DNA of 42,253 nt, taken from positions 1 to 42,253 of the forward strand of contig CAYHEQ010000004.1 in assembly GCA_964355795.1 (NCBI GenBank). Direction: 5' to 3'. Of the stretch, positions 7,393 to 40,551 are shown in pieces (position 1 is the stretch's first letter; the number at the start of each line of letters is the position of its first letter). The position numbers and the translations under genes are program-made. Origin of the DNA: an uncultured Candidatus Saccharibacteria bacterium (GTDB taxonomy: Bacteria > Patescibacteriota > JACPGU01). The notes beneath the pieces are model-generated. The model was not told where the DNA came from. It worked only from the letters and a program-made list of their open reading frames with translations, and did not search any database.

Positions 7393-7466
7393 ATTAAGAA
7401 AATAAGAAATTAATAAATTAAGAAATTAGACACTGCTTTCTTCTATTTTCTTAATTTTTTACTTTT

Positions 7467-8252
7467 TTAGCCCCTCGCCCGTAAGCGAAAGAAAAATTCC
7501 TTATTCCCCTTATCTCCCACCAAAGGGGAACGCGCTTCACCCAATATCTCAAAATCATTTTCACCGCACCAGTGACGAAAACTGGCGAGGAGTTTCTCGT
7601 GAATTTTGCCGTCGGTGATCACCCCTCTATATTTATCGGCGATATCTTTGCTCGCTTCAAATTGGGGCTTGAAAAGCGCCACAATGCTTGAGTTGTGAGT
7701 TATGAGTTGTGAGTTATGAACCCCATCTTTGTTGTCATTGACTCTTGACTCATGGCTCATAACTCTCTTCAATGTTGGCAAAACTTTTTTTAACGAGATG
7801 AATGACACATCTATCACAAATATATCAATCGGTTCTGGCAGATTTTCCAAATATCTGGCGTTGGTATTTTCCATAACGACAACCCTCGGATCAGAACGCA
7901 AACCCCAGTCTAGCTGTCCCGTGCCCACATCTATCGCATAAACTTTCTTCGCGCCATTTTGCAAAGCGTAATCAGTGAATCCACCCGTGGAAGACCCAAT
8001 ATCAGCCACAATCTTGCCATGAAAATCTAACGCGAAAGCGAGGGATGCTCCCGCCATTTTCTCCGCTCCGCGACCGACATATTGAGGGACTTTCAAGATC
8101 TCAATATTAGCATCCTCTGGATAACTCATCCCCGGCTTGTCAGCCGTCTTCCCTCCCACCAAAACCAACCCCGCCATAATCATTCTCTGCGCCTTTTCGC
8201 GGGAAGCGACCAGTCCTTTATCAAAAATGAGCGTATCAAGCCGTTTTTTCAT
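7467..8252 (-). CDS. tlyA: TlyA-family rRNA 2'-O-methyltransferase
   Basis: S4-like N-terminus (KKRLDTLIFDKGLVASREKAQRMIMAGLV) and SAM motif DIGSSTGGFTDYALQNGAKKVYAIDVG. The start is moved from the track start (8291) to the Met at 8252. Confidence 0.85.
   Translation of the reverse strand: MKKRLDTLIFDKGLVASREKAQRMIMAGLVLVGGKTADKPGMSYPEDANIEILKVPQYVGRGAEKMAGASLAFALDFHGKIVADIGSSTGGFTDYALQNGAKKVYAIDVGTGQLDWGLRSDPRVVVMENTNARYLENLPEPIDIFVIDVSFISLKKVLPTLKRVMSHESRVNDNKDGVHNSQLITHNSSIVALFKPQFEASKDIADKYRGVITDGKIHEKLLASFRHWCGENDFEILGEARSPLVGDKGNKEFFFRLRARG
7690..7717. repeat. 14-nt x2 tandem repeat inside tlyA
   Basis: gagttgtgagttat gagttgtgagttat, translated in frame as part of ...HNSQLITHNSS..., an insertion-like segment. 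Confidence 0.8.
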
Positions 8253-8296
8253 ATTCCCAGTATAGCACTTCCACCTCCTCTGGTCAAACAAATAAC

Positions 8297-8330: not shown

Positions 8331-8374
8331 ATTTCTTCCTGAATCTTAAATCATAAATCTTGAATCTGCCATAA

Positions 8375-17052: not shown

Positions 17053-17092
17053 AATCCTTTGTAATTTTTTAATTTCTCAATTTTTTATTTTA

Positions 17093-18607
17093 TTACTCAA
17101 AGTCTCCATCCTCGTCCCAATCATTGACGACAATACGGGGCTTTTCCCCTTGCTGGGCTTCTTGTTCTAGTTTAGTAAAATTAATCTTTTCTTCGCCCCT
17201 TTTTTCCCGAGATTTGATAATTCGCTCCAAGATTGAACCTTTGACTTCTTCTATCTTGGGCGTATCCGAGTCTATATCGGAAAGACTGGGCGCGTAGAGT
17301 GCGTGGTCATCAATAGCCTTGACCTCTTTGGAAACAACTGGCGCGGGAGAAGCAACTACCGATGCCACTGGTTTTTCAAAAATAACTTTTTCTTCTTTCC
17401 CTTTAGCTAGAATAGGCGCTGACTTGGCCACGCCCAGATATTGGTAAATTTTTTCAAAAGCTAGTTTCTCGGCTTCGGCCAAAGAGGTGTTTTCTAACTT
17501 AAATCCAGAAGCCTGCTTGTGACCACCACCGCCCAAGAGCAGACAAATTTTGTCCGCTTCCAAGGAAGAATCTTCCACGGTCCTAATACTACCGGTCACT
17601 AGCCCTTTTTCTCTTTCCACCAACAACATGAATATTTTGGCCCCGGGAGCGGTGATCATCAAATCGCCCAACACTTGTCCGAAATTAGTATTTTGAAAAC
17701 CGCCCTTCTCCACTTCATGTAAAGAGAGGGTGGACCAGACTATTTTGTTCTCTTTATCTTCTTTGATATTAGCCAGGATAGAACCCCAAGCCTTCAAAGT
17801 ATTAACCGAATGAGTTCTGTAGATATTTTTAATAATCTCGTATCTCTGCGCGCCAGCGGCGATTAATTGCGCAGCGACAGTCAGAGACTTGGGAGTCGTA
17901 TTGCTATTTTGAAATCTATCCGTATCAGTCAAAATACCGGCCAAAAGCAAAGTGGCCACTTCCTTGTCCAGCAAGGTTTTGTCCAAAGCTTCAATCATAG
18001 AAACTAAGATCTCGGCGGTAGCGGTAGCGGTGGAATCAATGAGGTTGATGTCGCCAAAATAATTGTTGGTCACATGATGGTCAATCACTACTAGAGGCAC
18101 GCCTTGAAAAGCTTCTTTATTATCAGAAAAAGCGCCGTTGACGCGGTCTAGACTCCCGACATCCAAGATAATTATCAAATCATAAGGGTTACCAGTATGT
18201 TCAATAGACAAATCTTCTTTACTGATAGTGCCTTCAGCTGGAGAAATCACCAATCGTACTTCATTTTCACTGTCTTTGTGATAGCTGATTTTGCCCACTT
18301 TGCCAGCCGGGCTTTTGATTTTGACCACCACATCGCGATTCAATTGCAAATGTTCGGAAATAATTGTGTGTTGGGGTAAAAATTTGTAGACATCGCTGAC
18401 ACCTTCGGGTACTACCGCGTCCACTTTTTTGCCCAGCTTTTCCAAGATCAGCTTCATGGCGATAGTAGAGGAGATAGCGTCGCAATCCGGACGCACATGA
18501 GTTAACACCAAAATCCTTTGGGACTTTTTGATGAGTTCAATGATTTGTTGCTTGGGGCTAGGGTCTCTGACCATAGAGTCATTTGAGCCTACTTTTAGGG
18601 GATCCAT
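17093..18607 (-). CDS. DHH/DHHA1 phosphoesterase (NrnA-like) with a C-terminal extension
   Basis: Motifs HVRPDCDAISS, IDHH and GGGGHKQASGF. About 130 extra C-terminal residues. Confidence 0.85.
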   Translation of the reverse strand: MDPLKVGSNDSMVRDPSPKQQIIELIKKSQRILVLTHVRPDCDAISSTIAMKLILEKLGKKVDAVVPEGVSDVYKFLPQHTIISEHLQLNRDVVVKIKSPAGKVGKISYHKDSENEVRLVISPAEGTISKEDLSIEHTGNPYDLIIILDVGSLDRVNGAFSDNKEAFQGVPLVVIDHHVTNNYFGDINLIDSTATATAEILVSMIEALDKTLLDKEVATLLLAGILTDTDRFQNSNTTPKSLTVAAQLIAAGAQRYEIIKNIYRTHSVNTLKAWGSILANIKEDKENKIVWSTLSLHEVEKGGFQNTNFGQVLGDLMITAPGAKIFMLLVEREKGLVTGSIRTVEDSSLEADKICLLLGGGGHKQASGFKLENTSLAEAEKLAFEKIYQYLGVAKSAPILAKGKEEKVIFEKPVASVVASPAPVVSKEVKAIDDHALYAPSLSDIDSDTPKIEEVKGSILERIIKSREKRGEEKINFTKLEQEAQQGEKPRIVVNDWDEDGDFE

Positions 18608-22436: not shown

Positions 22437-22633
22437 GCGCCCATAGCTCAGTTGGTTAGAGCGCCACTCTTACCCGCCCGCCTGGACTTCGTTTGTGCGC
22501 CTATAGCTCAGTTGGTTAGAGCGCCACTCTTATAAGGTGGATGTCGCTGGTTCAAGTCCAGCTAGGCGCATTCGTCAAGGCGAAGTCGGGCGCGGTAAGG
22601 TGGAAGTCCCTGGTTTCAGCCCCAAGCTGACCT
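22437..22633 (+). pseudogene. disrupted outer tRNA-Ile-like copy split in its anticodon by a 123-nt insert
   Basis: 22437-22472 matches the first 36 nt of the intact tRNA with 1 mismatch. 22596-22633 is a degenerate copy of its 3' half that cannot form a T arm or acceptor stem. Confidence 0.6.
22497..22570 (+). tRNA. tRNA-Ile (anticodon TAT)
   Basis: Manual cloverleaf: acceptor gcgccta/taggcgc, D arm gctc-agttggtta-gagc, anticodon arm ccact-cTTATAa-ggtgg, T arm gctgg-ttcaagt-ccagc. No encoded CCA. Confidence 0.85.
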
Positions 22634-26880: not shown

Positions 26881-29193
26881 TTAAGATTGCGCTCTCGGAT
26901 TTCTACTACTAGGCCATTCCTCTACCATCAAAAATTCTTTTTTGCCAGCAAGGGGCAAGATCTGGTAGATTTCTTCGGTGATGAAAGGGATCATCGGGTG
27001 CAGGAGAATGAGAGAATTTTTCAAAATGAAAAGGAGGTTGTCTTTAGTTTCTTTTTCAATTCTTAATTGCTCTGCGTTTTTATTATTTGGATTTTGAGTA
27101 TTGGGTATTGTTTGTGATTTGTGATTTGTGATTTGTGATTTTGTTTCCTCTATATACTTATCGCAAAATTCGTGCCAGAAAAAATGATAGATCTCTTCTG
27201 CCGCTTGACCGAAACGGAATTTTCCCAGATTGTCATGGTAGGATTTTTTTAATTCTGCAAATTTTAATTTAATCTCTCGATCAGCCTCGGTATTTTCGGT
27301 AAAATCAAGCTCGCCTCGCTGTTCATAGCCATCCAGCTTCATCAAAACAAAGCGCGTGGCGTTCCAGATCTTGTTCATAAAGGTCTTGGCCATTTGCAAA
27401 ACATCCTCGGAAAATTTGATATCCGGTGTGCCGGTGGTTTGGTAAATCAAGCCAAATCGTGTCGCGTCAGCGCCATATTTCTCCACCATAAGCAGAGGGT
27501 CGATGCCAGTGCCGAGCGACTTGCTCATCCTTTTCCCTTCTTTGTTAAAGACGGTTGGGTTGATATAGATAGTGTGAAAAGGCGCTTCGCCCATAAATTC
27601 AATCCCTGAAAAAAGCATGCGCACCTCCCAGAGATTGATAATCCCGCGGTCGGTGACATTGATGGAATTCGGATAGTATTTTTCCAAATCTGTTTTCTTG
27701 TTTTCTTGACTTCTTGACTTCTTGACTTCTTGACCATCGGGCCAACCGAGAGTCGCAAATGGCCACAGCGCCGATGAAAACCAAGTATCCAGAACATCTT
27801 CCGATTGAACCATATCGCAATCACTGCAGAAAGGGCATTTTTCTGGCCTATTGGCTGAAACAATGCATTGGTTTTGAATTTTAGATTTTGGATTTAAGGT
27901 TTGTTTGGGATTTGAGATTTGGGATTTGAGATTTTCTGCCGTTTGGTTTTTACAAAACCAAACAGGCAGTTGGTGTCCCCACCAGATCTGACGGCTGATA
28001 CACCAATCGCGGATATTTTCCAGCCAATGCATCGCTGTCCCCTCGTATTGTTCGGGGATGATTTTCACCTTACCTGATTTTAACGCTTCAATCGCGGGCT
28101 TGATTAATTCCGCCATTTTCACGAACCATTGCTTTGACGGGATTGGTTCGATAACGGTGTGGCAACGGTAACATTGCGCGCTATTGTGAATATAGTTGTC
28201 GTCAATGCGATCAATCAGCCCCATTTTTTCCATATCAGCCACGATGACTTTTCGCGCCTCCAGTGTCGTCAAACCTGCATATTTGCCACAATTGGCCATC
28301 ATCTTGCCATCTTCGTCTATTATTTGCTTTAATGGCAAATGATGGCGAAGCGAGATATCGTAATCCACAGAGTCATGGGCGGGAGTGACCTTGATAGCTC
28401 CCGAACCAAAGGCGGGATCTACCATCTCGTCAGCGACCACGGTGATCTCAAATTCGCCCAAGACCCCGGGAATCATATATTTCTTACCCACCATCTCGCG
28501 GTATCTTTCGTCAGACGGATGAACCGCCACCGCGGTATCGCCGAGTTTCGTCTCCGGACGAGTGGTTGCTAAAACAAAGGGGCCATATTTGATCCAATAC
28601 AATTTCGTTTTTTCTTCCTCGTGTTCTATCTCCAAATCAGACAAAGAGGTCTTGCATCTCGGACACCAATTGACCACTCTCTCGCCTTGATAAATATAGC
28701 CCTTGTCCCAATAGTGCTTGAAGGCGACGAGAACTGCGCGAGAATAACCTTCATCCATCGTGAAACGAGTGCGAGACCAGTCGCAGGAGACACCAAGTTT
28801 TTTCAGCTGTCCCAAAATAGTTGCCTCGTATTGATCCTTCCATTCCCAAACTTTTTCGACGAATTTTTCCCGCCCCAAATCAAAGCGATTCACCCCTTCT
28901 TTTTGTAATTTTTGTTCTACTTTGTACTGCGTGGCAATCCCCGCGTGATCGGTGCCGGGGATCCAAAGCGTTGGTCGTCCCTCCATTCTTTTTTGTCGAA
29001 TCAAAACGTCTTGCAAGGTATTGTTGAGCGTGTGCCCCATATGCAATTCGCCCGTCACATTGGGTGGGGGGATGGCAATGACAAAAGGTTCTCCTTTGGC
29101 TTTTTCGGAGGGCGAGAAATATCCCGACTTTTCCCAAAGCGGGTAGATTTTCCCTTCCACTTCGGCTGGATTGTAGGTTTTGGAGAGTTCCAT
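26881..29193 (-). CDS. valS: valine--tRNA ligase (with in-frame low-complexity insertions)
   Basis: PPPNVTGELHMGH (HIGH), RMSKSLGTG (KMSKS), editing-domain block TTRPETKLGDTAVAVHP, and EDVLDTWFSS. Confidence 0.95.
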   Translation of the reverse strand: MELSKTYNPAEVEGKIYPLWEKSGYFSPSEKAKGEPFVIAIPPPNVTGELHMGHTLNNTLQDVLIRQKRMEGRPTLWIPGTDHAGIATQYKVEQKLQKEGVNRFDLGREKFVEKVWEWKDQYEATILGQLKKLGVSCDWSRTRFTMDEGYSRAVLVAFKHYWDKGYIYQGERVVNWCPRCKTSLSDLEIEHEEEKTKLYWIKYGPFVLATTRPETKLGDTAVAVHPSDERYREMVGKKYMIPGVLGEFEITVVADEMVDPAFGSGAIKVTPAHDSVDYDISLRHHLPLKQIIDEDGKMMANCGKYAGLTTLEARKVIVADMEKMGLIDRIDDNYIHNSAQCYRCHTVIEPIPSKQWFVKMAELIKPAIEALKSGKVKIIPEQYEGTAMHWLENIRDWCISRQIWWGHQLPVWFCKNQTAENLKSQISNPKQTLNPKSKIQNQCIVSANRPEKCPFCSDCDMVQSEDVLDTWFSSALWPFATLGWPDGQEVKKSRSQENKKTDLEKYYPNSINVTDRGIINLWEVRMLFSGIEFMGEAPFHTIYINPTVFNKEGKRMSKSLGTGIDPLLMVEKYGADATRFGLIYQTTGTPDIKFSEDVLQMAKTFMNKIWNATRFVLMKLDGYEQRGELDFTENTEADREIKLKFAELKKSYHDNLGKFRFGQAAEEIYHFFWHEFCDKYIEETKSQITNHKSQTIPNTQNPNNKNAEQLRIEKETKDNLLFILKNSLILLHPMIPFITEEIYQILPLAGKKEFLMVEEWPSSRNPRAQS
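27113..27140. repeat. 7-nt x4 tandem repeat inside valS
   Basis: tgtgatt x4, part of the in-frame segment ...QITNHKSQTIPNTQNPNNKN.... Confidence 0.85.
27705..27735. repeat. 8-nt x~4 tandem repeat inside valS
   Basis: cttgactt x3 plus cttgacc, encoding ...GQEVKKSRSQE.... Confidence 0.85.
27870..27934. repeat. T/G-rich stuttered repeat inside valS
   Basis: ggttttgaattttagattttggatttaaggtttgtttgggatttgagatttgggatttgagatttt encodes ...ENLKSQISNPKQTLNPKSKIQNQ... between the WFCKNQ and CPFCSDC blocks. Confidence 0.8.
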
Positions 29194-29235
29194 TATATGC
29201 TTGATATGAAATAGTATATTGTGAGAATGACCCTA

Positions 29236-30360
29236 CTAGCAAACAAAGTCAAGATAATTATCTCTGTTAATGACGGTGACTTGAGCGTCTGGATAAGAAC
29301 CCGCAAAATCTTTCGGAATGGAAAAATCATCTTTTTTCCATTTTATTTCGTAACCGAATATCTGACCATCTCCTTCTTCTATCCAGTCAATCTCTTTTTG
29401 ATCATAATTCCTCCAAAAATAATGATTGAAATAATTCCCCTTATAGCTGTTTCTTTTTATCCTTTCCATGATAACAAAATTTTCCCATATCTCCCCGATG
29501 TCATTTCTACTCTCCGTGTCGTTGAATTGTCCGATAACCGCGTTACGAATACCGTTGTCGTAAAAATAATATTTGTTCTTTTTGGATATTTCTTTTCTCA
29601 AGTTTTTATTAAAACCACTCACCGCTTTGACAACAAAGGTTTTTTCCAAAAGATCCAAATACTTCTCTACTGTTCTGGAGTTAAGCCCCAGCTGGGTGGC
29701 CAATTCATTGACGGAAACAGGCTTGCCTATTTGGAAGGCAAGTAATTTCAATAGCTTAATCAAGGCGGTGGGATTTTTGATATTTTCTAGAGCTAAAATG
29801 TCTTTGAATAGATAGGACGCTACCGTCTCGTTGAGAATTTTTATTTTTTCTTCTTTACTCTTCGCTAAAACAACTTCGGGGTATGAGCCAAAAAGCAGAA
29901 AATCGTCTAGTTTCTCTTTGAGCTCAAATTTGTTATACATATTCAAAAGTTCCATTTGCGCGATGGGGTAAAGCGTCAAAGTCGTTTTTCTTCCGGTCAA
30001 AGGCTCACCGATTTTGTTCGCCAAATCAAAAGACGAAGAGCCGGTGGCAATAACCAGTATCCCCGGGATTTGATCGATAATTATCTTCAGTCCCATACCG
30101 ATATCGGGGATCTGCTGGGCTTCGTCAATGGCGATTAGCTCGTACCCCGAGACATATTCCGATATATTGGAAAAATTTTGCGACCCCAAAATCTGTCGGG
30201 TCAAAATATTGTCCCCCGAATCTAATTTATATTTTTTATCAACAGCGGACAGGTATTGTTTGAGGAGGGTGGTCTTACCTACTCTCCTTGGGCCATAGAT
30301 AACCAGAACCTTGCCAATCCCTAGGTATTGTCCTATGTTGTTGTAATATCTTGGAATCAT
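29236..30360 (-). CDS. AAA+ ATPase (COG1373-like, DUF4143-type C-terminus)
   Basis: Walker A VIYGPRRVGKTTLL and Walker B ELIAIDEAQ. The first ATG is at 30360. The track start at 30384 is a TTG. Confidence 0.85.
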   Translation of the reverse strand: MIPRYYNNIGQYLGIGKVLVIYGPRRVGKTTLLKQYLSAVDKKYKLDSGDNILTRQILGSQNFSNISEYVSGYELIAIDEAQQIPDIGMGLKIIIDQIPGILVIATGSSSFDLANKIGEPLTGRKTTLTLYPIAQMELLNMYNKFELKEKLDDFLLFGSYPEVVLAKSKEEKIKILNETVASYLFKDILALENIKNPTALIKLLKLLAFQIGKPVSVNELATQLGLNSRTVEKYLDLLEKTFVVKAVSGFNKNLRKEISKKNKYYFYDNGIRNAVIGQFNDTESRNDIGEIWENFVIMERIKRNSYKGNYFNHYFWRNYDQKEIDWIEEGDGQIFGYEIKWKKDDFSIPKDFAGSYPDAQVTVINRDNYLDFVC

Positions 30361-30477
30361 ACCGCCATCATACTCCCAATACAAAAATTTGTCAATATCT
30401 TTGTAGTATCAACACAAATATTTAGTATATTTTGTGTATTTATGGCTATTTTAGCCCCCATATCTATGCTTTGAGAC

Positions 30478-30514
30478 AAAAAATAAAAGGAGCAAATGTT
30501 TTCACATTTGCTCC
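30478..30514 (-). terminator. intrinsic terminator after the 339-aa ORF
   Basis: The minus strand reads ggagcaaatg-tgaaaa-catttgctcc followed by ttttatttttt. Confidence 0.7.
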
Positions 30515-30539
30515 CCCAGAGGGAAAGATCAAAGAGAGT

Positions 30540-31559
30540 TCAAGCGTGAAGCTCCAATGGGACTCCCTGGACGGACACACCAATCCTGTCATTGGCAAGC
30601 CTGCAATACCAATCGTCGTTGACATTGACACCATCGTCGCTACCGTAGATGCACAGAGGGTCGTCGGGATCAGGAGTGTTCGTCCGAGACCACGTGGTCA
30701 TGCGCAATTTGGCGTCAAGCGCTCTGACCAGATTGAGCATTAGGGTATCGCTGGATACTGTGGCGATATCCATCTTCTTCTTGGCGACTACCGCTTGTTG
30801 CACATCCCAATCTCTCATGGCGGTCCACAGAGGGTGTTCGTAGCCGATCCGCCAGCACCATTTGGTGGAGGCGGGCTCTTGCGCCCACTGATGGTTTGGC
30901 CCCAAGAACCAATTGGAATAGAAAACATTGTTCCTGATCGTCCCTGGTCCGAGGTTGTCGTGAGCCACTCTCCACCACAAGGATTGGTTAATGAGGTGGG
31001 TGGGCAGGTTGCCCTCTTTGGCAGGGACAGAGGGTGGACAGAGGTAGAGAATGAAGAGGGTTTTCCACTCTTTGGTTTTGCAGAGTTCAGAGAGCCCCCG
31101 TATGAGATCGGGAGTAATCTCAATCTCTCTGCCGTCTGGGGTAATGATGACCATGGGAATGTCTCTGGGCGCCCATCTTTCAGGTAGACCCAGAGGGTTC
31201 TCTCCTTCGGAACCAAGGAAGGCCTTTTCCACCTCGTCAGGACCGATGAAGATGCCGTTGTCAAACCGGCGGTAGGGGGAGAAGGGATCGAGAATCTCTT
31301 GGGGGATCTCGCCCTTTTGAAGAAGGGTGAGAAGCCGAAGAGCGGATTTTGGATCTATGCCAGGGGGGAGGGCTATCTGATTACCTCCTTCATAAAAAAC
31401 GGGCTCCCCCTTCAATACCGCTTTCAGCATACCTTCCACCACCGTCTTATCGCGTAAAGCTTGTTGCGCCTGCGCATGAGTGAGCTTACATGACTTCAGG
31501 GTTTTGATGATAAAAATCGTCATATCGAAAGCCTGATCGCCACTTGTCGGTTTGCTCAT
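30540..31559 (-). CDS. hypothetical Trp-rich protein
   Basis: The start is set at ATG 31559 (AAGGAGGTG 5 nt upstream). 339 aa with no family recognised. By eye it is more G+C-rich than its neighbours. Confidence 0.6.
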   Translation of the reverse strand: MSKPTSGDQAFDMTIFIIKTLKSCKLTHAQAQQALRDKTVVEGMLKAVLKGEPVFYEGGNQIALPPGIDPKSALRLLTLLQKGEIPQEILDPFSPYRRFDNGIFIGPDEVEKAFLGSEGENPLGLPERWAPRDIPMVIITPDGREIEITPDLIRGLSELCKTKEWKTLFILYLCPPSVPAKEGNLPTHLINQSLWWRVAHDNLGPGTIRNNVFYSNWFLGPNHQWAQEPASTKWCWRIGYEHPLWTAMRDWDVQQAVVAKKKMDIATVSSDTLMLNLVRALDAKLRMTTWSRTNTPDPDDPLCIYGSDDGVNVNDDWYCRLANDRIGVSVQGVPLELHA

Positions 31560-31737
31560 AACGCACCTCCTTCGTTTTTGCCCCAATCGGTCTGAAAGGG
31601 GCGAGCGCCTTAATTCTTAAGGTTCGCTTTACTGCGTGGATACATTATACCACCACAGGGCTTCTTGTCAACCTTTTTGGCTTGATTGAGCGAATATGGT
31701 GGAATTACTTCGGGGCTCAACTTATAAGCAACCTTTC

Positions 31738-31765
31738 TTGACACTACTAATCCATAGTATATACT
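31738..31765 (+). promoter_or_regulatory. sigma70-like promoter for the RelB/RelE-type operon
   Basis: TTGACA-16 nt-TATACT, ending 8 nt before the ATG at 31773. Confidence 0.5.
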
Positions 31766-31772
31766 TTGGTTA

Positions 31773-32048
31773 ATGAAAACTGTCATCAATATCAAGACCG
31801 ACAAAGTGGTGAAAGAAAACGCGCAAGAGATCGCGCGCGATTTGGGTCTGTCTTTGAGCGACATTGTCAATGCTTCGCTCCGTAATTTCATTAAAACACG
31901 GGAGATATATATTTCCGCCGTACCGCAAATGACCCCGGAATTGGAACGGCTTTTAGGCCCTATTGAAAAAGATATCGTTTTCGGCAAAAAGCTTTCTCCT
32001 GCTTTTTCTTCCGCCGATGAAGCTCTCGGCTATCTCGACACGCTATGA
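31773..32048 (+). CDS. RelB/DinJ-family antitoxin
   Basis: MKTVINIKTDKVVKENAQEIARDLGLSLSDIVNASLRNFI ribbon-helix-helix pattern. ATGA overlap with the downstream toxin gene. Confidence 0.8.
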   Translation: MKTVINIKTDKVVKENAQEIARDLGLSLSDIVNASLRNFIKTREIYISAVPQMTPELERLLGPIEKDIVFGKKLSPAFSSADEALGYLDTL

Positions 32049-32305
32049 TCGTTCTCTACCACAAAAACTTTGAAAAGGATTTCAAAAAGCTCTCCGCCAA
32101 ACAAAAAGAAAAGTGCAAAGAACGCCTCACGCTCTTTTTTCAAGACGAATTCGGGCTTATCTTAGGGAATCATCCTTTGAGGGGAAAATATCAGGGCTAT
32201 CGCAGTATCAATATCGGTGGCGACCTCCGCGCGCTTTACAAAAAAACCGCGAGAAATGCGGTTATTTTCGTAGCCGTCAATACGCATAACAAGCTGTACA
32301 AATAA
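32045..32305 (+). CDS. RelE/YafQ-family toxin
   Basis: KNFEKDFKKL...HPLRGKYQGYRSINIGGDLRALYK...VIFVAVNTHNKLYK. Confidence 0.8.
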   Translation: MIVLYHKNFEKDFKKLSAKQKEKCKERLTLFFQDEFGLILGNHPLRGKYQGYRSINIGGDLRALYKKTARNAVIFVAVNTHNKLYK

Positions 32306-32308
32306 TGC

Positions 32309-33604
32309 TCACAGGTTTTTGCTCGACGCGACCTCAAAATTCATTTTGCTTAATTGCTTAATTGGTTTTTTGGTTAATTGGAACAAAGCGCAGGTCGCGA
32401 CCATTGTCGCGTTGTCGCCACAGTATTTGAGAGGGGGTAGAACGAGATTTGGATGTCCGACATCGAACCCGCTAGATGACGGACATCTCAGCTCACCTAG
32501 AGTAATCGCCATTTTTTCGCGCAAACGTTTGTTGGCGGCGACGCCTCCGGCGATAGAGATGGTCTTGGCTTTGTATTTTTGCGCGGCGCGGATAGTTTTC
32601 GCCACCAAAACATCAGTGGCGGCTTCTTCAAATTCGTAGGCGAACGATCCTTTTCGCGCTTCAGCCGAGGTCGCACCTCCGTCCGCTACGCTCTCCGAGG
32701 AACGACCCCCACTTTCGCGTTGCCAAGCATACAAAACGGCAGTTTTGAGACCGGAAAAGGAAAAATTGAGGTCCTTGCTGTCTAGCATAGGACGAGGGAA
32801 GGTTAGGCCAGTGTTGAGTGTTGAGTGTTGAGTGTTGAGTTTAGGATTTTGAATTTGAGATTTGTTTGTGTTTTGTGAAGTTTGTGTTTTGTGAAGTTTT
32901 TTTCGGTATTCATCCGCATATCGCGAGACGCTCGGTCCTCCGGGGTATCCCAACCCCAAAATCCTCGCCACTTTATCAAAGGCCTCCCCCGCCGCGTCAT
33001 CCAAGGTCTCGCCCAGCGTCTGATATTGACCATGGTCTTTCATTAAAATAAGCGAGGTATGCCCACCAGAGACCAGCAATATGATTGCTGGAAATTCGAA
33101 GGGGGTTGCGTTTAGGTTGAAATTTTGGATTTGTAATTTGTTTGTGTTTTGTGTTTTGTAATTTGTGTTTTCGCGAATTTTATCGGAGATAAAATTCGCG
33201 TAGATGTGTCCCTCCAAATGATTCACCGGTATCAAGGGCTTCCCCCACGCCAGCGCCAATGATTTGGCGGTATTAACGCCTACCAGAAGCGAGCCAATCA
33301 GCCCTGGATAGGCGGTAACGGCGATAGCGTCTATCTGTCGAGGTGTCACCTCGGCATCTTTGAACGCCTTATCAATGACAGAGATGATCTGCTCCACATG
33401 AGCGCGAGAAGCCACTTCTGGCACCACCCCGCCGGTTAAAGCGTGGATATCCACTTGAGAGGCAATAACAGATGACAAAACGTGTGCTCCTTTTTGAAGT
33501 CGCACTTCGTCTGGTGCCGAAGAACGACTTCTTTGAGGAGCGCGCAACTCCACCACCGAAGCGGCCGTCTCATCACAACTTGTTTCAATGCCTAGAATAA
33601 TCAT
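32309..33604 (-). CDS. tsaD: tRNA N6-adenosine threonylcarbamoyltransferase TsaD (insertion-rich)
   Basis: MIILGIETSCDETAASVV, NHLEGHIYANF, VSGGHTSL, GGVAANKRLRE. At 431 aa it is clearly longer than the family norm because of several inserts. Confidence 0.9.
   Translation of the reverse strand: MIILGIETSCDETAASVVELRAPQRSRSSAPDEVRLQKGAHVLSSVIASQVDIHALTGGVVPEVASRAHVEQIISVIDKAFKDAEVTPRQIDAIAVTAYPGLIGSLLVGVNTAKSLALAWGKPLIPVNHLEGHIYANFISDKIRENTNYKTQNTNKLQIQNFNLNATPFEFPAIILLVSGGHTSLILMKDHGQYQTLGETLDDAAGEAFDKVARILGLGYPGGPSVSRYADEYRKKLHKTQTSQNTNKSQIQNPKLNTQHSTLNTGLTFPRPMLDSKDLNFSFSGLKTAVLYAWQRESGGRSSESVADGGATSAEARKGSFAYEFEEAATDVLVAKTIRAAQKYKAKTISIAGGVAANKRLREKMAITLGELRCPSSSGFDVGHPNLVLPPLKYCGDNATMVATCALFQLTKKPIKQLSKMNFEVASSKNL
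32810..32898. repeat. tandem repeats inside tsaD
   Basis: gtgttga x4 (32810-32837) and ttgtgttttgtgaagt x2 (32865-32896), encoding ...KKLHKTQTSQNTNKSQIQNPKLNTQHSTLNT.... Confidence 0.85.
33108..33172. repeat. T/G-rich stuttered repeat inside tsaD
   Basis: gcgtttaggttgaaattttggatttgtaatttgtttgtgttttgtgttttgtaatttgtgtttt encodes ...RENTNYKTQNTNKLQIQNFNLNA.... Confidence 0.8.
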
Positions 33605-33678
33605 ATCCGAATCTTAATTCTAATTATTATCCTAATATACGCTAATATTTGAATATTATAGCCCTTTTCCGTCCAAAA

Positions 33679-33687
33679 TGCTATAAT
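33679..33687 (+). promoter_or_regulatory. extended -10 (TGCTATAAT) upstream of the FemAB-family gene
   Basis: tgctataatct. The same word occurs at 39160-39170. Confidence 0.4.
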
Positions 33688-33768
33688 CTGAATGAGATTA
33701 TTTTCCGCGTTAATCCGCGCCTGCCTGCCGGCAAAGGCAGGTAAACATCTGCGTAATTCCGCGACATT

Positions 33769-34659
33769 ATGGATAATTTGCTACAATCCAAACACTGGGG
33801 GGAGTTCCAAAAAGCTCTTGGGAAAGAGGTCTTTTGGATTGAAAACGCGCTTTTGATCAAAAATCCTCTGCCGAAGGGCAAATGCTATCTTTCCTGCCCT
33901 TGGGGGCCGGAAGAACTAACGGGAGATTTTTTGTTCAAAGCCAAGATGTTGGCGCGGAAAGAAATGGCCATCTTCGTAAGAGTTGAGCCGAGAAACAGAT
34001 TTAAGATTCAGGATTCAAGATTCAAGATTAAAAAAACGAGGGATACCAACCCGAAGAATACTCTCGTTCTGGATCTATCCGCCAGCGAAGAGGAATTGTT
34101 GAAAAATCTCAAGCAGAAAACGCGATACAACATCAATCTTGCGACTAAAAAAGGCGTGAAGATTGAAACTACCACGAACCCAGAGAATATCAAAGTATTT
34201 TATGACATCATCAAAGAAACAAGCAAGAGAGACCGCATCAGAAATCATAGCAAAGAGTATTTCAAAAAAATGCTGGAAACCCTGGGGCGCGCAGGCGTAA
34301 TGAAGCTCTATCTGGCCAGATACGAGAACAAATACATCGCCGGTAATCTCGTAGCAAAATTTGGCAACACCACCACCTATCTCCACGGCGCGTCATCAGA
34401 CGAGGAACGCAATGTCATGGCGCCCTATCTCATGCAATGGGAAGCGATTCGCGACGGGAAGAAAGAAGGGTCAAAATATTACGACTTCTTTGGCATCGCT
34501 CCAGACGACAATCCGCGCCGAAAATGGGCGGGCATTACCCGCTTCAAAAAAGGTTTTGGCGGAAAGCAGATAGATCGCCCGGGGACTTATGATGTGGTGC
34601 TGTCGAGGGGGTGGTATTTGGTGTATAGAGTGTTTAGGATTTTGAATAAATTACGATAG
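33769..34659 (+). CDS. FemAB-family peptidoglycan peptide-bridge transferase
   Basis: LQSKHWGEFQ..., NLKQKTRYNINLATKKGV, YLHGASSDEERNVMAPYLMQWEAIRDGKKEGSKYYDFFGI, FKKGFGG. Confidence 0.8.
   Translation: MDNLLQSKHWGEFQKALGKEVFWIENALLIKNPLPKGKCYLSCPWGPEELTGDFLFKAKMLARKEMAIFVRVEPRNRFKIQDSRFKIKKTRDTNPKNTLVLDLSASEEELLKNLKQKTRYNINLATKKGVKIETTTNPENIKVFYDIIKETSKRDRIRNHSKEYFKKMLETLGRAGVMKLYLARYENKYIAGNLVAKFGNTTTYLHGASSDEERNVMAPYLMQWEAIRDGKKEGSKYYDFFGIAPDDNPRRKWAGITRFKKGFGGKQIDRPGTYDVVLSRGWYLVYRVFRILNKLR
33997..34035. repeat. stuttered repeat inside the FemAB-family gene
   Basis: agatttaagattcaggattcaagattcaagattaaaaaaa encodes RFKIQDSRFKIKK. Confidence 0.8.
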
Positions 34660-36043: not shown

Positions 36044-36169
36044 CAGTAACACCTCCTCTTTACTCGTTTAGTTGAATTCTTAAGTTGCGTCTGAATCCTT
36101 CTTCTTCCCGCCATCGCAATTGTAATTTCTTAATTTCTTAATTTCTTATTTTTTTAATTTCTTATACCT

Positions 36170-38953
36170 CTACTTCGCCTCTTGCCAATTTTTGCCCATC
36201 CCGCTATCAACAATTATCGGACATTTGAGCTGGAAAACATTTTCCATGATTTTCTTAATTTTTTCAGACAGAGCGCGCTCTGTCTCTACGGGGATTTCGA
36301 AAACCAGTTCGTCATGCACTTGCAGAATCATTTTCACTTCGGGATTTTTGGACAAAATCTGCCGGTCAATTTCTATCATCGCCAGTTTGATAATGTCCGC
36401 GGCGGTGCCTTGAATCGGCATATTGATAGCCATTCGCTCGGCCGATTTGCGGATTTGCATATTGGGCGAATTGATATCGGGAGTGGGACGACGCCGTCCC
36501 AGCAAGGTCTGGACATAGCCGTGTTCTTTGGCAAATTCAATCGTCTCGCTAAGATAATCTCTGACGCCAGAAAAATTTTCAAAGTATTGATCAATGAATT
36601 CTTTGGCCTCCTTTGGATCGACATCAATGGATTGAGCCAACCCATAGGCGCTCATGCCGTAGAGGATGCCGAAATTGACCACTTTGGCCATCCGTCTCTG
36701 GTCTTTTGTCACCTTGTCTGCCTCAACATGAAAGACGGCCATGGCGGTCTCGGTATGAATATCGCGCCCGTCTTTGAACGCTTGCAACATTTTCCTATCC
36801 CCCGATAAATGCGCGGCAACCCGTAGCTCGATTTGCGAATAGTCAAAAACCATCAGCGTTTGCCCTTTTTCGGCGACAAAAGCCCCACGGATTTGTTGCC
36901 CCCATTCGGCGGAGGCCGGAATATTTTGTAGGTTGGGGTCGGTAGAAGACAGCCGTCCCGTCGCTGCGATGGTCTGACTGAAATTAGTATGAATCCGCCC
37001 ATCCATGGGATTGACTGCTTTGGGTAGCGCCTCCAGATAAGTATTTTGTAATTTGGAAAGCTCCCGATATGCCAAAATAGGCTCAATGATAGGGTGGGCG
37101 CCTTTTAATTTTTCCAGCTCTCCGGCGGCGGTAGAAAGACCGGTTTTATTTTTTTTAATCAATTCTGACGAGATTTTTAATTTTTGGAACAAAACTTCCG
37201 CCATCTGCGAGGGAGAAGCGATATTGAAATCCGACCCCGCGAGTTTATGAATCTTTTTTTCCAGCTCTTTGATTTTCTCCGCAACTATCCGCGATATCTT
37301 GTGAAGTTTTTCCGCGTCAATCCGCACCCCGTGCCACTCCATATCAGACAGGACTCGCAAGAGAGGCATTTCCACATCATAAAAGACATCGCTGATTTTT
37401 CCCGTCAATCTCTTCTTCAACAATTCGTACAGTCGCCAAGTAAAATCCGCGTCCTCGGTGGCGTATTGGGTCGCCTCATTGATATCGGTGTCGGCAAAAG
37501 ATTTTTGTTTGGCGCCTGTGCCAATCAATTGTGAAATCGGAATCATCTGGTGCCCGAATTCTATGAAAGCCAGATTGTCCAAAGAATGACCTCGACGAAC
37601 AGGGTCAAGACAATATGATGCCAACATCGTGTCAAAATAGATACCTGCCATTTTTACACCCGCTTTGCGGATAGCCAATAGATCATATTTTATATTTTGG
37701 CCAATCTTCCTTATCTTTTCGTCTTCAAGAATGAGTCGGAGCGTTTCCATGACCAATTTCTTCGGCAACTGTTGGCCCACCGTATGCCCCACCGGGATAT
37801 AATACCCCTCGCCCAACTTCCAAGAAAACGACAGCCCCACCAACTCCGAATTGAGTGCCCCCAAGTCCGAGGTCTCGGTATCAATGGCGAACTCCTTTTG
37901 CTTTTTCAATTCTTTCAGAAACTCGCCGAAAGATTTCTGGTCATTAACGAGTTTGTATTTGTGGTTTCGTAGAGGCAGGTGATTACCTGCCTTCTTTCTG
38001 GGCAGATTATTATCTGCCCCTACGGAATCAAACAATGTCTGCTCACCCTCTACTGGCTTCTTGCCCATCAGCTTCAACAACCTCGGCATCAGCGAGCGGA
38101 ATTCGTATTTTTGGAAAATAGCGGTGGCGTTTTTGAAATCCACATCATGCAAGACACAGGCTGGCAGGTCCAATTTGATCGGCGCGTTGAGATTGATGGT
38201 CGCCAATTTCTGCGATAGGTAAGCGTTGCCTTTGTCTATCGCTAATTTGTCGCGAATACTATCAGACATCGCGAATTTTCCCGAATCAATCGCAGAGTAG
38301 ACCCCATCCAGCGTCTTATATTTCTGCAACAAATCGGTAGCGGTCTTCTCGCCAATGCCCTTCACACCAGGAATATTATCCGACGCGTCGCCTCGCAGGG
38401 CTTTGTAGTCCACGACTTGCGAAGGCGTTAGCCCCATTTTTTCTACCACTCCTTTTTCATCATAAATAATGGTGTCCTTGATGCCTTTTTTCAAAGTATA
38501 GACAAAAGTATTTTTGTCCACCAGTTGCAAGGTGTCCATATCGCCAGTAACGATATAAGTATCCACACCAAGATTTTTACCATCTATTTTGTGACAGAGC
38601 GTCCCAATGAGGTCATCAGCCTCGTATCCTTGCAATTCAAATATCGGCACATTAAGCGAGGTCAGCACCTCTTTGGTCATCGGGATCTGCTCGTAAAGTT
38701 CATCTGGCGCTTTGACCCGCGTCGCCTTGTATTCTTTGTACTCTTCGTGCCGAAAAGTCGGTCCCGCCATATCAAAAGTCGCCGTGATATAATCCGGCCC
38801 GACATCTTCAATGGCCTTCAGCAAAGTGGCCGTGAACCCGTATACCGCCCCTATTGATTTCCCGTCCTTCGTCCGCAAATTAGGGATAGCGTGATACGAG
38901 CGATGGACAAGAGCGTTGGAGTCAATTAAAAGGAATTTTTTTTTCTTGGTCAT
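36170..38953 (-). CDS. polA: DNA polymerase I
   Basis: 5' nuclease (LLIDSNALVHRSYHA, GDASDNIPGVKGIGEKTA), 3'-5' exonuclease (FAIDTETS) and polymerase motifs A/B/C (DYSQIELR, RRMAKVVNFGILYG, QVHDE). Confidence 0.97.
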   Translation of the reverse strand: MTKKKKFLLIDSNALVHRSYHAIPNLRTKDGKSIGAVYGFTATLLKAIEDVGPDYITATFDMAGPTFRHEEYKEYKATRVKAPDELYEQIPMTKEVLTSLNVPIFELQGYEADDLIGTLCHKIDGKNLGVDTYIVTGDMDTLQLVDKNTFVYTLKKGIKDTIIYDEKGVVEKMGLTPSQVVDYKALRGDASDNIPGVKGIGEKTATDLLQKYKTLDGVYSAIDSGKFAMSDSIRDKLAIDKGNAYLSQKLATINLNAPIKLDLPACVLHDVDFKNATAIFQKYEFRSLMPRLLKLMGKKPVEGEQTLFDSVGADNNLPRKKAGNHLPLRNHKYKLVNDQKSFGEFLKELKKQKEFAIDTETSDLGALNSELVGLSFSWKLGEGYYIPVGHTVGQQLPKKLVMETLRLILEDEKIRKIGQNIKYDLLAIRKAGVKMAGIYFDTMLASYCLDPVRRGHSLDNLAFIEFGHQMIPISQLIGTGAKQKSFADTDINEATQYATEDADFTWRLYELLKKRLTGKISDVFYDVEMPLLRVLSDMEWHGVRIDAEKLHKISRIVAEKIKELEKKIHKLAGSDFNIASPSQMAEVLFQKLKISSELIKKNKTGLSTAAGELEKLKGAHPIIEPILAYRELSKLQNTYLEALPKAVNPMDGRIHTNFSQTIAATGRLSSTDPNLQNIPASAEWGQQIRGAFVAEKGQTLMVFDYSQIELRVAAHLSGDRKMLQAFKDGRDIHTETAMAVFHVEADKVTKDQRRMAKVVNFGILYGMSAYGLAQSIDVDPKEAKEFIDQYFENFSGVRDYLSETIEFAKEHGYVQTLLGRRRPTPDINSPNMQIRKSAERMAINMPIQGTAADIIKLAMIEIDRQILSKNPEVKMILQVHDELVFEIPVETERALSEKIKKIMENVFQLKCPIIVDSGMGKNWQEAK

Positions 38954-40508: not shown

Positions 40509-40551
40509 TGCTAGTCGGATGCCTGCCTGCGCAGGCAGGCTACATCTGACA
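40509..40551 (-). repeat. TGTCGGATG..CATCCGACTAGCA element, copy 3, with an 18-nt palindrome inserted in the loop
   Basis: tgctagtcggatg[cctgcctgcgcaggcagg]ctacatctgaca is the rc of the 39200 element, with 1 mismatch plus a perfect palindromic insert. Confidence 0.8.

Follow-up and report, generated by a model that had tools for sequence, protein, structure and literature searches.

Heptamer and octamer repeat arrays in essential genes of a Candidate Phyla Radiation bacterium: probable slippage products filtered by reading frame

The closest described counterparts of the repeats reported here are cyanobacterial. Short tandemly repeated repetitive (STRR) heptamers are reportedly present in Calothrix, Anabaena and Nostoc, and Nostoc is also said to carry small dispersed repeats (SDR), hairpins of 21-27 nt that are scattered through the genome and often lie in tandem heptamer arrays. 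We describe arrays of comparable character in a 42 kb stretch of DNA (44% G+C; contig CAYHEQ010000004.1, hereafter the window) that carries housekeeping genes, mostly on the minus strand, and whose top protein matches all belong to the Candidate Phyla Radiation (CPR)/Patescibacteria. A sequence-only reading of the window had pointed to T/G-rich repeat blocks in the genes for valyl-tRNA synthetase (ValRS), TsaD, TlyA and a FemAB-family protein, and Tandem Repeats Finder (TRF) recovers every block that it listed at essentially the same positions. The label T/G-rich is correct for the plus strand, the genes being on the minus strand, but the sense strand is A/C-rich. We consider it probable that these are STRR-like arrays made by slippage and then filtered by reading frame, stop codons and the tolerance of protein loops.

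STRR resemble the CPR arrays in forming many dispersed heptamer arrays, and in being mostly intergenic while also occupying variable parts of genes that remain functional. Each STRR-bearing genome also favours a small set of units, as the CPR relatives clearly do and the window less so. They inhabit large cyanobacterial genomes, whereas CPR genomes are of about 1 Mb. The CPR arrays differ further in their units (AAATCNN, TTTCTTAA and others), in the additional presence of octamers and in that many would be translated in frame within essential genes. They work like STRR and SDR, and are not members of the cyanobacterial families. STRR heptamers are also mentioned in a passage of PMC4692102, and a title (Vioque 1997, as cited in PMC2858038) reports STRRs within the gene for RNase P RNA. 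Rehm et al. 2015 (PMC4692102) report the G-rich heptamers GGGAATC in Xanthomonas and GGGGA(C/T)T in Nostoc, typically in about four units and often less than 50 bp from the ends of open reading frames (ORFs); these are under-represented in the coding DNA of both organisms. The CPR arrays share their strong enrichment in particular genomes, and the antisense ValRS units GGGATTT/GAGATTT look similar, but CPR units are frequent within genes and their G runs are too few to build a quadruplex. A G-quadruplex reading of GGGATTT was considered and rejected, there being only two GGG runs, and the likeness of TTTGGGA to telomeric repeats was set aside as superficial.

Other systems bring repeats and coding sequence together in different ways. 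In Rickettsia, palindromic elements (RPE) of around 100-150 bp are summarised as repetitive DNA lying in frame in housekeeping genes (Ogata et al. 2000, in the summary given by PMC10969869). Like the CPR inserts, RPE occur in unrelated housekeeping genes of a host-dependent bacterium with a reduced genome, are compatible with the protein fold and are also found between genes; however, they form defined families, each with a conserved peptide, whereas the CPR inserts are built of tandem 7-8-mers over 28-90 nt, turn over rapidly and lack a conserved element. Contingency loci, such as the 7-bp repeats at Haemophilus hmw1A (PMC8262952), likewise use slippage-prone non-triplet units. Those repeats act as switches in promoters or 5' ends of surface or restriction-modification genes, whereas the CPR arrays lie in the middle of ORFs of essential genes, where only frame-keeping changes are survivable. 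Finally, housekeeping proteins of Plasmodium and Dictyostelium contain Asn/Lys-rich low-complexity inserts that are driven by slippage and tolerated rather than needed. As in CPR, these are hydrophilic, disordered, fast-evolving and placed in loops of conserved enzymes, but they consist mostly of codon repeats in extremely A+T-rich DNA and not of 7-8-nt units at 44% G+C. Full-text literature searches returned nothing that links CPR/Patescibacteria with heptanucleotide or simple sequence repeats. What is distinctive here is how densely the essential enzymes of a reduced genome are colonised in frame.

The excess of arrays was assessed against 60 block-wise dinucleotide shuffles of the window, counting non-redundant TRF arrays with a score of at least 40. 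The window contains 21 such arrays against a shuffle mean of 0.95 (maximum 4), and for periods 7, 8, 14 or 16 the count is 14 against 0.22 expected. Head-to-tail arrays of period 7, or of its doublet 14, begin at 27111, 27867, 32810, 33130, 33997, 7689 and 8342, and are accompanied by octamer arrays. Some blocks are perfect: (TTTGTGA)x4.4 at 27111-27141, (AGTGTTG)x4.4 at 32810-32840, a 16-mer repeated 2.2 times at 32864-32899 and a 14-mer repeated 2.2 times at 7689-7719.

The nearest available genome, here called the sister (GCA_016188915.1, 'Candidatus Microgenomates bacterium'), encodes TsaD and ValRS proteins 69% and 80% identical, respectively, to those of the window; the next closest sequences are CPR3 and Berkelbacteria-like. 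The array trait is marked in this clade, and its occurrence in the rest of CPR is patchy. Per 10 kb, arrays of period 7, 8, 14 or 16 number 3.3 for the window and 2.4-3.2 for the sister; the corresponding values are 0.67 for other CPR loci and 0.34 for loci outside CPR, this control being a mixture of CPR and non-CPR loci from a genome scan with the TsaD alignment that does not include the closest relatives. Counted at a TRF score of at least 36 rather than 40, four relatives have 16-25 tandem arrays per locus of 15-21 kb, mainly of period 7. Single TsaD genes hold as many as six (locus L163) or ten arrays (L166), and the ValRS, PolA, HolA and FemAB genes of relatives are likewise array-bearing. 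Each genome favours particular units that are reused at unlinked loci: AGTATTA in L164 and L165, AATTACC in L163 and AAATCTC in L165. The units of the window are more varied than those of its relatives, with an enrichment of AAATCNN that is only about twofold.

ValRS (valS, 26881-29193, minus strand, 770 amino acids; phmmer E=2.4e-189 against the Thermus thermophilus enzyme, PDB code 1gax) has intact HIGH and KMSKS motifs and contains three arrays. Insert A (27867-27935, minus strand; TRF periods 7, 14 and 32) reads in the sense direction as (AAATCTC AAATCCC)x2 followed by decayed units, encodes NLKSQISNPKQTLNPKSKIQNQ and lies opposite a 14-residue gap in 1gax; at this site the sister has (AAATCTC)x4. 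Insert B (27691-27734, minus strand; TRF 27695-27734, period 8, 5.0 copies) is built of the octamers (GTCAAGAA)x4 and then AACAAGAA, with the peptide QEVKKSRSQENKK. A 12-residue gap stands opposite it in 1gax and in every CPR relative but the sister, which also has five octamers there; in the window four of these are perfect copies of GTCAAGAA, while those of the sister are decayed. Insert C (27111-27141, minus strand) is a perfect (AAATCAC)x4.4 array (period 7, 100% matches) encoding KSQITNHKSQ, with a gap of around 14 residues opposite it in 1gax. The sister has no array at this site, only a single CAAATC and two 18-nt gaps. In an AlphaFold model (this and the TsaD model were built from homologue alignments) the predicted local distance difference test (pLDDT) falls below 50 at all three inserts (A, residues 418-440; B, 487-494; C, 692-701). 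Elsewhere this happens only at both termini and at 43-45, 189-191 and 558-562, the core being modelled with confidence. An alignment of 14 CPR ValRS sequences (672-828 amino acids) shows variable inserts of 0-60 residues at the same few loop sites.

A separate observation concerns residues ~411-465 of the window ValRS (27800-27990), where both Cys pairs of a zinc knuckle (FC...CPFCSDC) are kept. The segment is also kept in T. thermophilus and some distant CPR ValRS proteins and is lost in the 80%-identical sister and the nearest relatives, a distribution that suggests recombination or repeated loss.

TsaD (32309-33604, minus strand, 431 amino acids; phmmer matches to 6nak and 6n9a) bears two array inserts and two hairpin-type inserts. 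Its conserved motifs are present, and its model superimposes well on the TsaD proteins of E. coli and Salmonella (template modelling score 0.87-0.88, normalised by target length). Against Thermotoga maritima TsaD (6nak) it aligns as three blocks split by repeat inserts of 28 and 36 residues. The 28-residue gap corresponds to insert 1, whose array (33130-33171, minus strand; TRF period 14) consists of sense units AAACACA and AAATTAC and encodes NTNYKTQNTNKLQ. There the sister carries (AAATCTC)x4.6 in place of the ACACAAA/ATTACAA units of the window. On the 5' edge of insert 1 an inverted-repeat search located a perfect 13-nt palindrome (CGCGAATTTTATC/GATAAAATTCGCG, 33172-33200); judged by eye from the alignment, the sister has a shorter palindrome there, GCAAACTTCGTTTGC. 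The 36-residue gap corresponds to insert 2 (32810-32900, minus strand), composed of a 16-mer (TTCACAAAACACAAAC)x2.2 at 32864-32899 (100% matches), AAATCTC-type units and (CAACACT)x4.4, the last within a period-7 TRF array at 32810-32859 that is perfect over the 4.4 copies of 32810-32840; the peptide is KLHKTQTSQNTNKSQIQNPKLNTQHSTLNT. In the sister this insert runs through (TTGCAGA)x2, CCTGCCTGCCGGCGAGGCAGG, TTGCAGATTG and AAATCNN units in that order, which makes it a GC hairpin enclosed in a heptamer array; the two contents are unrelated and cannot be aligned, while the flanks are 84-100% identical.

The TsaD model has pLDDT below 50 at both repeat inserts (residues 142-166 and 243-264) and also at three lineage-specific inserts free of repeats (31-36, 300-311 and 375-382). 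The hairpin-type inserts, at 33486-33541 (folding z = -3.2) and 32452-32487 (z = -2.7), are GC-richer and have no counterpart in the sister. Among 21 CPR TsaD sequences (342-524 amino acids) inserts of 0-60 residues occupy the same few loop sites; some relatives lack an insert at sites shared in TsaD or ValRS, and certain peptide words recur in the inserts of both proteins (KSQI.NPK, NIQYPINN, NPNDQN, KLTANSYKLKA and LPAGRQ). The sister also has a second, truncated tsaD (L002, 8643-9224, 193 amino acids) with the hairpin and arrays of insert 2, some 70 kb from the full gene, which is probably a duplicated pseudogene fragment.

In TlyA (7467-8291, minus strand) the insert region at 7689-7766 combines a 14-mer (AACTCACAACTCAT) repeated 2.2 times at 7689-7719 (100% matches) with a weaker heptamer array at 7738-7766; the peptide ends in SHESRVNDNKDGVHNSQLITHNS, and 3hp7 has a 19-residue gap opposite the repeats. 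The array in the FemAB-family gene (33769-34659, plus strand) is (AGATTCA)x4.7 at 33997-34029 (plus strand, period 7), which encodes RFKIQDSRFKI. It adds no net length, the sister ortholog being equally long at this point and FemX (6snr) longer, and it overwrites an existing loop instead of being a net insertion. The idea that the repeats form in-frame loop inserts between normally contiguous blocks is thus borne out for ValRS, TsaD and TlyA by alignment, with gaps opposite the arrays in 1gax, 6nak, 3hp7 and CPR homologues, and for ValRS and TsaD by low pLDDT as well, but fails for the FemAB-family protein. The pseudogene alternative is ruled out: the ORFs are intact and the ValRS HIGH/KMSKS and TsaD motifs are present. 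PolA shows lineage differences of its own. In the window it has a nine-residue insert, SVGADNNLP, at residues 310-318 (~38000-38026), and in the sister a mid-gene octamer array (TAAGAAAT)x4.4 (L001, 6075-6109) and, near the C-terminus, a hairpin-plus-heptamer insert of seven residues (L001, 7803-7844).

All arrays in window genes are read through in frame, with translations that agree with the peptides noted from the sequence alone, and a scan of all window proteins for K/Q/N/S/T/P/I/H-rich segments picks out exactly the ValRS and TsaD inserts. The part played by stop codons and orientation was assessed on arrays pooled over 160 kb of the clade. Successive units of 7 or 8 nt are read in each of the three frames in turn, so that an array stays open only if its unit is free of stop codons in every frame. 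This holds for the sense unit in 27 of 40 coding arrays but for the antisense unit in just 10 of the 40, and for 12 of 62 orientations of spacer arrays. The coding 83% of the DNA holds 40 arrays and the non-coding 17% holds 31, a density around four times higher in spacers. Together these figures indicate that coding arrays are a filtered subset of the arrays generated. The sense composition of coding arrays (A 49%, C 21%, T 21%, G 9%) is that of an A/C-rich, stop-free orientation, which explains the K/Q/N/S/T-rich peptides.

Comparison with the sister indicates how recent the arrays are. At ordinary sites the two genomes differ by ~22%, so the perfect arrays must be much younger than their split. 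The sites of ValRS insert A and TsaD insert 1 are common to both, with different units and copy numbers, and where ValRS insert C has its array the sister's single CAAATC fits growth in place from a local seed. By these alignments the arrays lengthen, shorten and are replaced where they stand. A metagenome scan with the window TsaD protein gave, among the matches listed, only relatives of no more than 45% identity and no strain variants of the window organism. Related CPR TsaD proteins were grouped in clusters at 90% identity, and one pair, P0072 (423 amino acids, 14 contigs) and P0256 (430 amino acids), differs solely by seven residues. The corresponding loci come from strains of a Berkelbacteria-like CPR bacterium; across 3.47 kb they share 99.9% identity and show three single-nucleotide polymorphisms and one homopolymer indel. 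Between L167/L168 (1741-1900) and L169 (922-1102) there is a tandem duplication of 21 nt, the three heptamers AATGAAA-AACTAAT-AACTAAT, in a TsaD loop, which adds the seven residues NEKLITN. This is the kind of variant predicted by slippage followed by reading-frame selection. The sequence-only reading had proposed selection after slippage or insertion, and had looked to length polymorphism as a check. The proposal gains support from the sister comparisons, from the stop and orientation filter and from this frame-preserving difference of 21 nt between 99.9%-identical strains, albeit of a related lineage.

Arrays also lie between genes. A spacer heptamer array of AAATCTT/AAATCAT units separates EF-P and TlyA (8342-8367, plus strand), and 19 of its bases are identical to part of TsaD insert 2 of the sister. 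The word AAATCNNAAATC has 24 matches in the window against 11.6 expected, a number that zero shuffles reach; they include sites in ValRS, TsaD and FemAB (antisense strand) and in the spacer at ~8341-8366. In relatives, the units AATTACC, AAATCTC and TAATACT occur in genes and spacers alike. To that extent the proposal that one sequence family populates both spacers and loops stands. Most spacer arrays of the window, however, are A/T-rich octamers of the TTTCTTAA type (7393, 11444, 17058 and 36123), which would be unreadable as protein and so not survivable in genes. Examples are (TAATTTCT)x5.2 downstream of polA (36123-36164, plus strand, TRF score 70), (TTTTTAAT)x4.8 (17058-17095, plus strand) and the inverted pair (ATTAAGAA)n ... 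(TTCTTAAT)n at 7393-7469, whose 28-nt arms (7403-7430 and 7442-7469) show 86% complementarity. A suggestion that the 19-mer, present at three loci, is strong evidence of dispersal was rejected because the third copy belongs to the duplicated TsaD fragment of the sister, leaving two independent copies. Between genes, arrays of one unit frequently form inverted pairs, as in (AGTATTA)n...(TAATACT)n. Such pairs occur in the window (7403-7430/7442-7469 and 16016-16039/16051-16074), in L164 (1963-2037 and 8489-8562) and in L165 (2567-2641 and 3460-3586), and by their sequence could form long imperfect hairpins between co-directional genes.

A further component is a 21-nt GC hairpin, CCTGCCTGCCGGCRAGGCAGG, which is near-constant in distant CPR lineages (1-3 positions differing) and typically sits inside heptamer arrays. 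In the window, where 0.03 matches are expected, two loci give three overlapping matches. A 21-22-nt form, CCTGCCTGCCGGCAAAGGCAGG, lies in the spacer between TsaD and FemAB (33720-33741) with TAATYCCGCG repeat units on its flanks, and a second copy, CCTGCCTGCGCAGGCAGG, lies upstream of relB (40522-40539). Elsewhere it is found in L001 (10708-10728 and 7803-7823), L164 (10672-10692), L110 (6220-6240), L072 (10861-10881), L008 (9415-9435) and L090 (6703-6723). The hosts are heptamer arrays of TsaD (L001, L164, L110, L072 and L090), PolA of the sister (L001) and an unannotated site in L008, and the TsaD proteins of these lineages are only about 40% identical to one another. The same heptamer tract is present on both sides of the hairpin in L001, L008, L164 and L110, and the L001 region folds with z = -3.1. 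Where it is translated in frame the hairpin yields LPAGRQ or PAGEAG. It is present in TsaD insert 2 and PolA of the sister and absent from the orthologous sites of the window; no clean pair of filled and empty sites with unaltered flanks emerged. As reportedly described, the Nostoc SDR have the same size, array-embedded position and hairpin potential. The CPR hairpin differs from them in its near-constancy across deeply diverged lineages, its in-frame presence in coding regions (LPAGRQ), its taxon and presumably also its sequence. These features hint at an added mobile component, perhaps comparable with the SDR elements of Nostoc. A stronger proposal, which we hold only tentatively and think somewhat unlikely, is that genome-specific heptamer/octamer arrays and the hairpin CCTGCCTGCCGGCRAGGCAGG together constitute an undescribed, ultra-small selfish DNA of CPR that is actively spreading between spacers and the loops of essential genes. 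If so, the hairpin would owe its constancy to a conserved protein that recognises it, or to horizontal spread; the arrays would serve as landing pads or arise as a by-product; and an independent phylum would present a parallel to the STRR/SDR puzzle of cyanobacteria.

The explanation that we favour, slippage followed by filtering, would run as follows. Non-triplet arrays (units of 7 or 8 nt, doublets of 14 or 16) would be generated at a high rate across the genome, most likely through template switching or slipped-strand mispairing that starts from short local seeds. Within genes, an array would persist only if its net length change is a multiple of three, if its unit and orientation are stop-free in all three frames, giving an A/C-rich sense strand and hence K/Q/N/S/T/P/I/H peptides, and if it lies in a loop able to accommodate additional disordered residues. 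The arrays that remain would then be translated as flexible hydrophilic loops of otherwise normal ValRS, TsaD and TlyA, would be neutral or slightly harmful rather than useful, and would turn over much faster than the surrounding codons. Several points weigh against this account. The stop filter is leaky, since in 13 of the 40 coding arrays the consensus unit would give a stop codon if perfect and longer. The length polymorphism comes from a related lineage and not from the window organism, and the preference for periods 7 and 8 is left unexplained by the mechanism. Moreover, the reuse of genome-specific preferred units at unlinked loci, the 19-mer common to a window spacer and a TsaD insert of the sister, and the near-constant 21-nt hairpin inside arrays of distant lineages are hard to reconcile with purely local slippage, and suggest dispersal or a sequence-specific generator.

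Those last observations lead to the main competing explanation, that very small mobile elements resembling SDR or RPE, made of hairpins and heptamer tracts, deposit the inserts and slippage remodels them afterwards. Its case comprises the hairpin CCTGCCTGCCGGCRAGGCAGG at two window spacers where 0.03 matches are expected, its near-identical copies in arrays of lineages whose TsaD proteins share ~40% identity, the identical tract on its two sides, as if it had been inserted into a pre-existing array, the two TsaD hairpin-type inserts without sister counterpart (z = -3.2 and -2.7), the shared 19-mer and the reuse by each genome of its own units at unlinked loci. Set against this, the arrays to which attention was originally drawn lack a hairpin, terminal inverted repeats, target-site duplications and any element-length consensus; their units vary by site (AAATCAC, GTCAAGAA, CAACACT); a local seed could have given rise to ValRS insert C; and Pfam scans of 30 window ORFs found no transposase-like gene. 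We judge deposition by such elements unlikely as the source of the inserts, and the arrays originally noted do not call for it, although it may also be a complement to slippage.

The remaining explanations carry less weight. A functional role, under which selection would maintain the inserts as lineage-specific loops (for example disordered linkers, or surfaces for interaction suited to episymbiosis) and the DNA repeats would be incidental, would fit their recurrence at the same loop sites in many CPR lineages and their uniformly hydrophilic character. It seems very doubtful, however, given that insert sequence and length are unconserved even between sister genomes with 84-100% identical flanks, that some relatives have no insert at the site, that the same DNA words occur in non-coding spacers and that perfect DNA repeats betray recent mutation, not a maintained protein sequence. 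Phase variation, in which gain or loss of a unit would switch a gene on or off, draws on the frame shift that each copy of 7 or 8 nt brings and on the four to five perfect copies present. Yet ValRS and TsaD are housekeeping genes, essential and present in single copy; the arrays occupy the middle of ORFs in many genes rather than the 5' end of surface or restriction-modification genes; and the sole polymorphism seen, of 21 nt, keeps the frame, so that contingency loci are scarcely credible here. Hardly more plausible is an artefact of assembly or sequencing, or gene decay: the contig is of metagenome type and low-complexity DNA mis-assembles easily, but inserts occur at the same sites in independent assemblies (NCBI, JGI and ENA), the ORFs are open, catalytic motifs are intact and so are the cores of the models. 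Inteins, introns and other insertions removed after synthesis were rejected, the inserts being 10-36 low-complexity residues and no Rfam match being present at the arrays; Rfam and tRNA scans of the window likewise gave nothing there.

CPR genomes are usually called streamlined. The up to ten fast-evolving non-triplet arrays that single essential enzymes hold here argue for strong mutational input or weak purifying selection, and under the preferred account of slippage and filtering even a tiny genome would carry filler DNA of this kind within core proteins. Non-triplet repeats in essential genes are a standing frameshift hazard, and their abundance is informative on replication and repair. 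The arrays also provide a natural map of insertion-tolerant loops in core enzymes, and explain much of the length variation of TsaD (342-524 amino acids) and ValRS (672-902 amino acids) together with the recurring CPR peptide words (KSQI.NPK, NPNDQN, LPAGRQ). Insert peptides of this type will be a source of error for alignments, for domain calls and for low-complexity filters. The presence of heptamer arrays with small hairpins set in them in a second phylum allows the origin of STRR and SDR to be approached by comparison.

The gene complement of the window comprises TrpRS/TyrRS, GroEL, TlyA, EF-P, SSB, S6, RuvA, RNase J, PNPase, a DHH phosphoesterase and SpoIID, together with ValRS, TsaD, the FemAB-family protein, HolA and PolA, and the order PolA-HolA-FemAB-TsaD(-ValRS) is kept in relatives. 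Between tsaD and valS, at 29236-31987, the window has an AAA_14/DUF4143 ATPase and two ORFs without a Pfam match; in L164, L165 and L166 valS follows tsaD immediately, and the three-gene stretch is probably an inserted segment. At 22496-22571 there is a tRNA-Ile with anticodon UAU. A tRNA-like stretch of 64 nt at 23912-23975 matches Rfam weakly (33.8 bits) and is not called by ARAGORN. Bacteria normally decode AUA by a lysidine-modified CAU anticodon, and UAU on a tRNA-Ile is unusual. Finally, in the DHH protein the 125-position Pfam DHH domain is spread across 195 residues (31-225; 17933-18517), which implies a large insertion here as well, and its gene contains a hexamer repeat, (ACCGCT)x2.8, at 18015-18031 (TRF).

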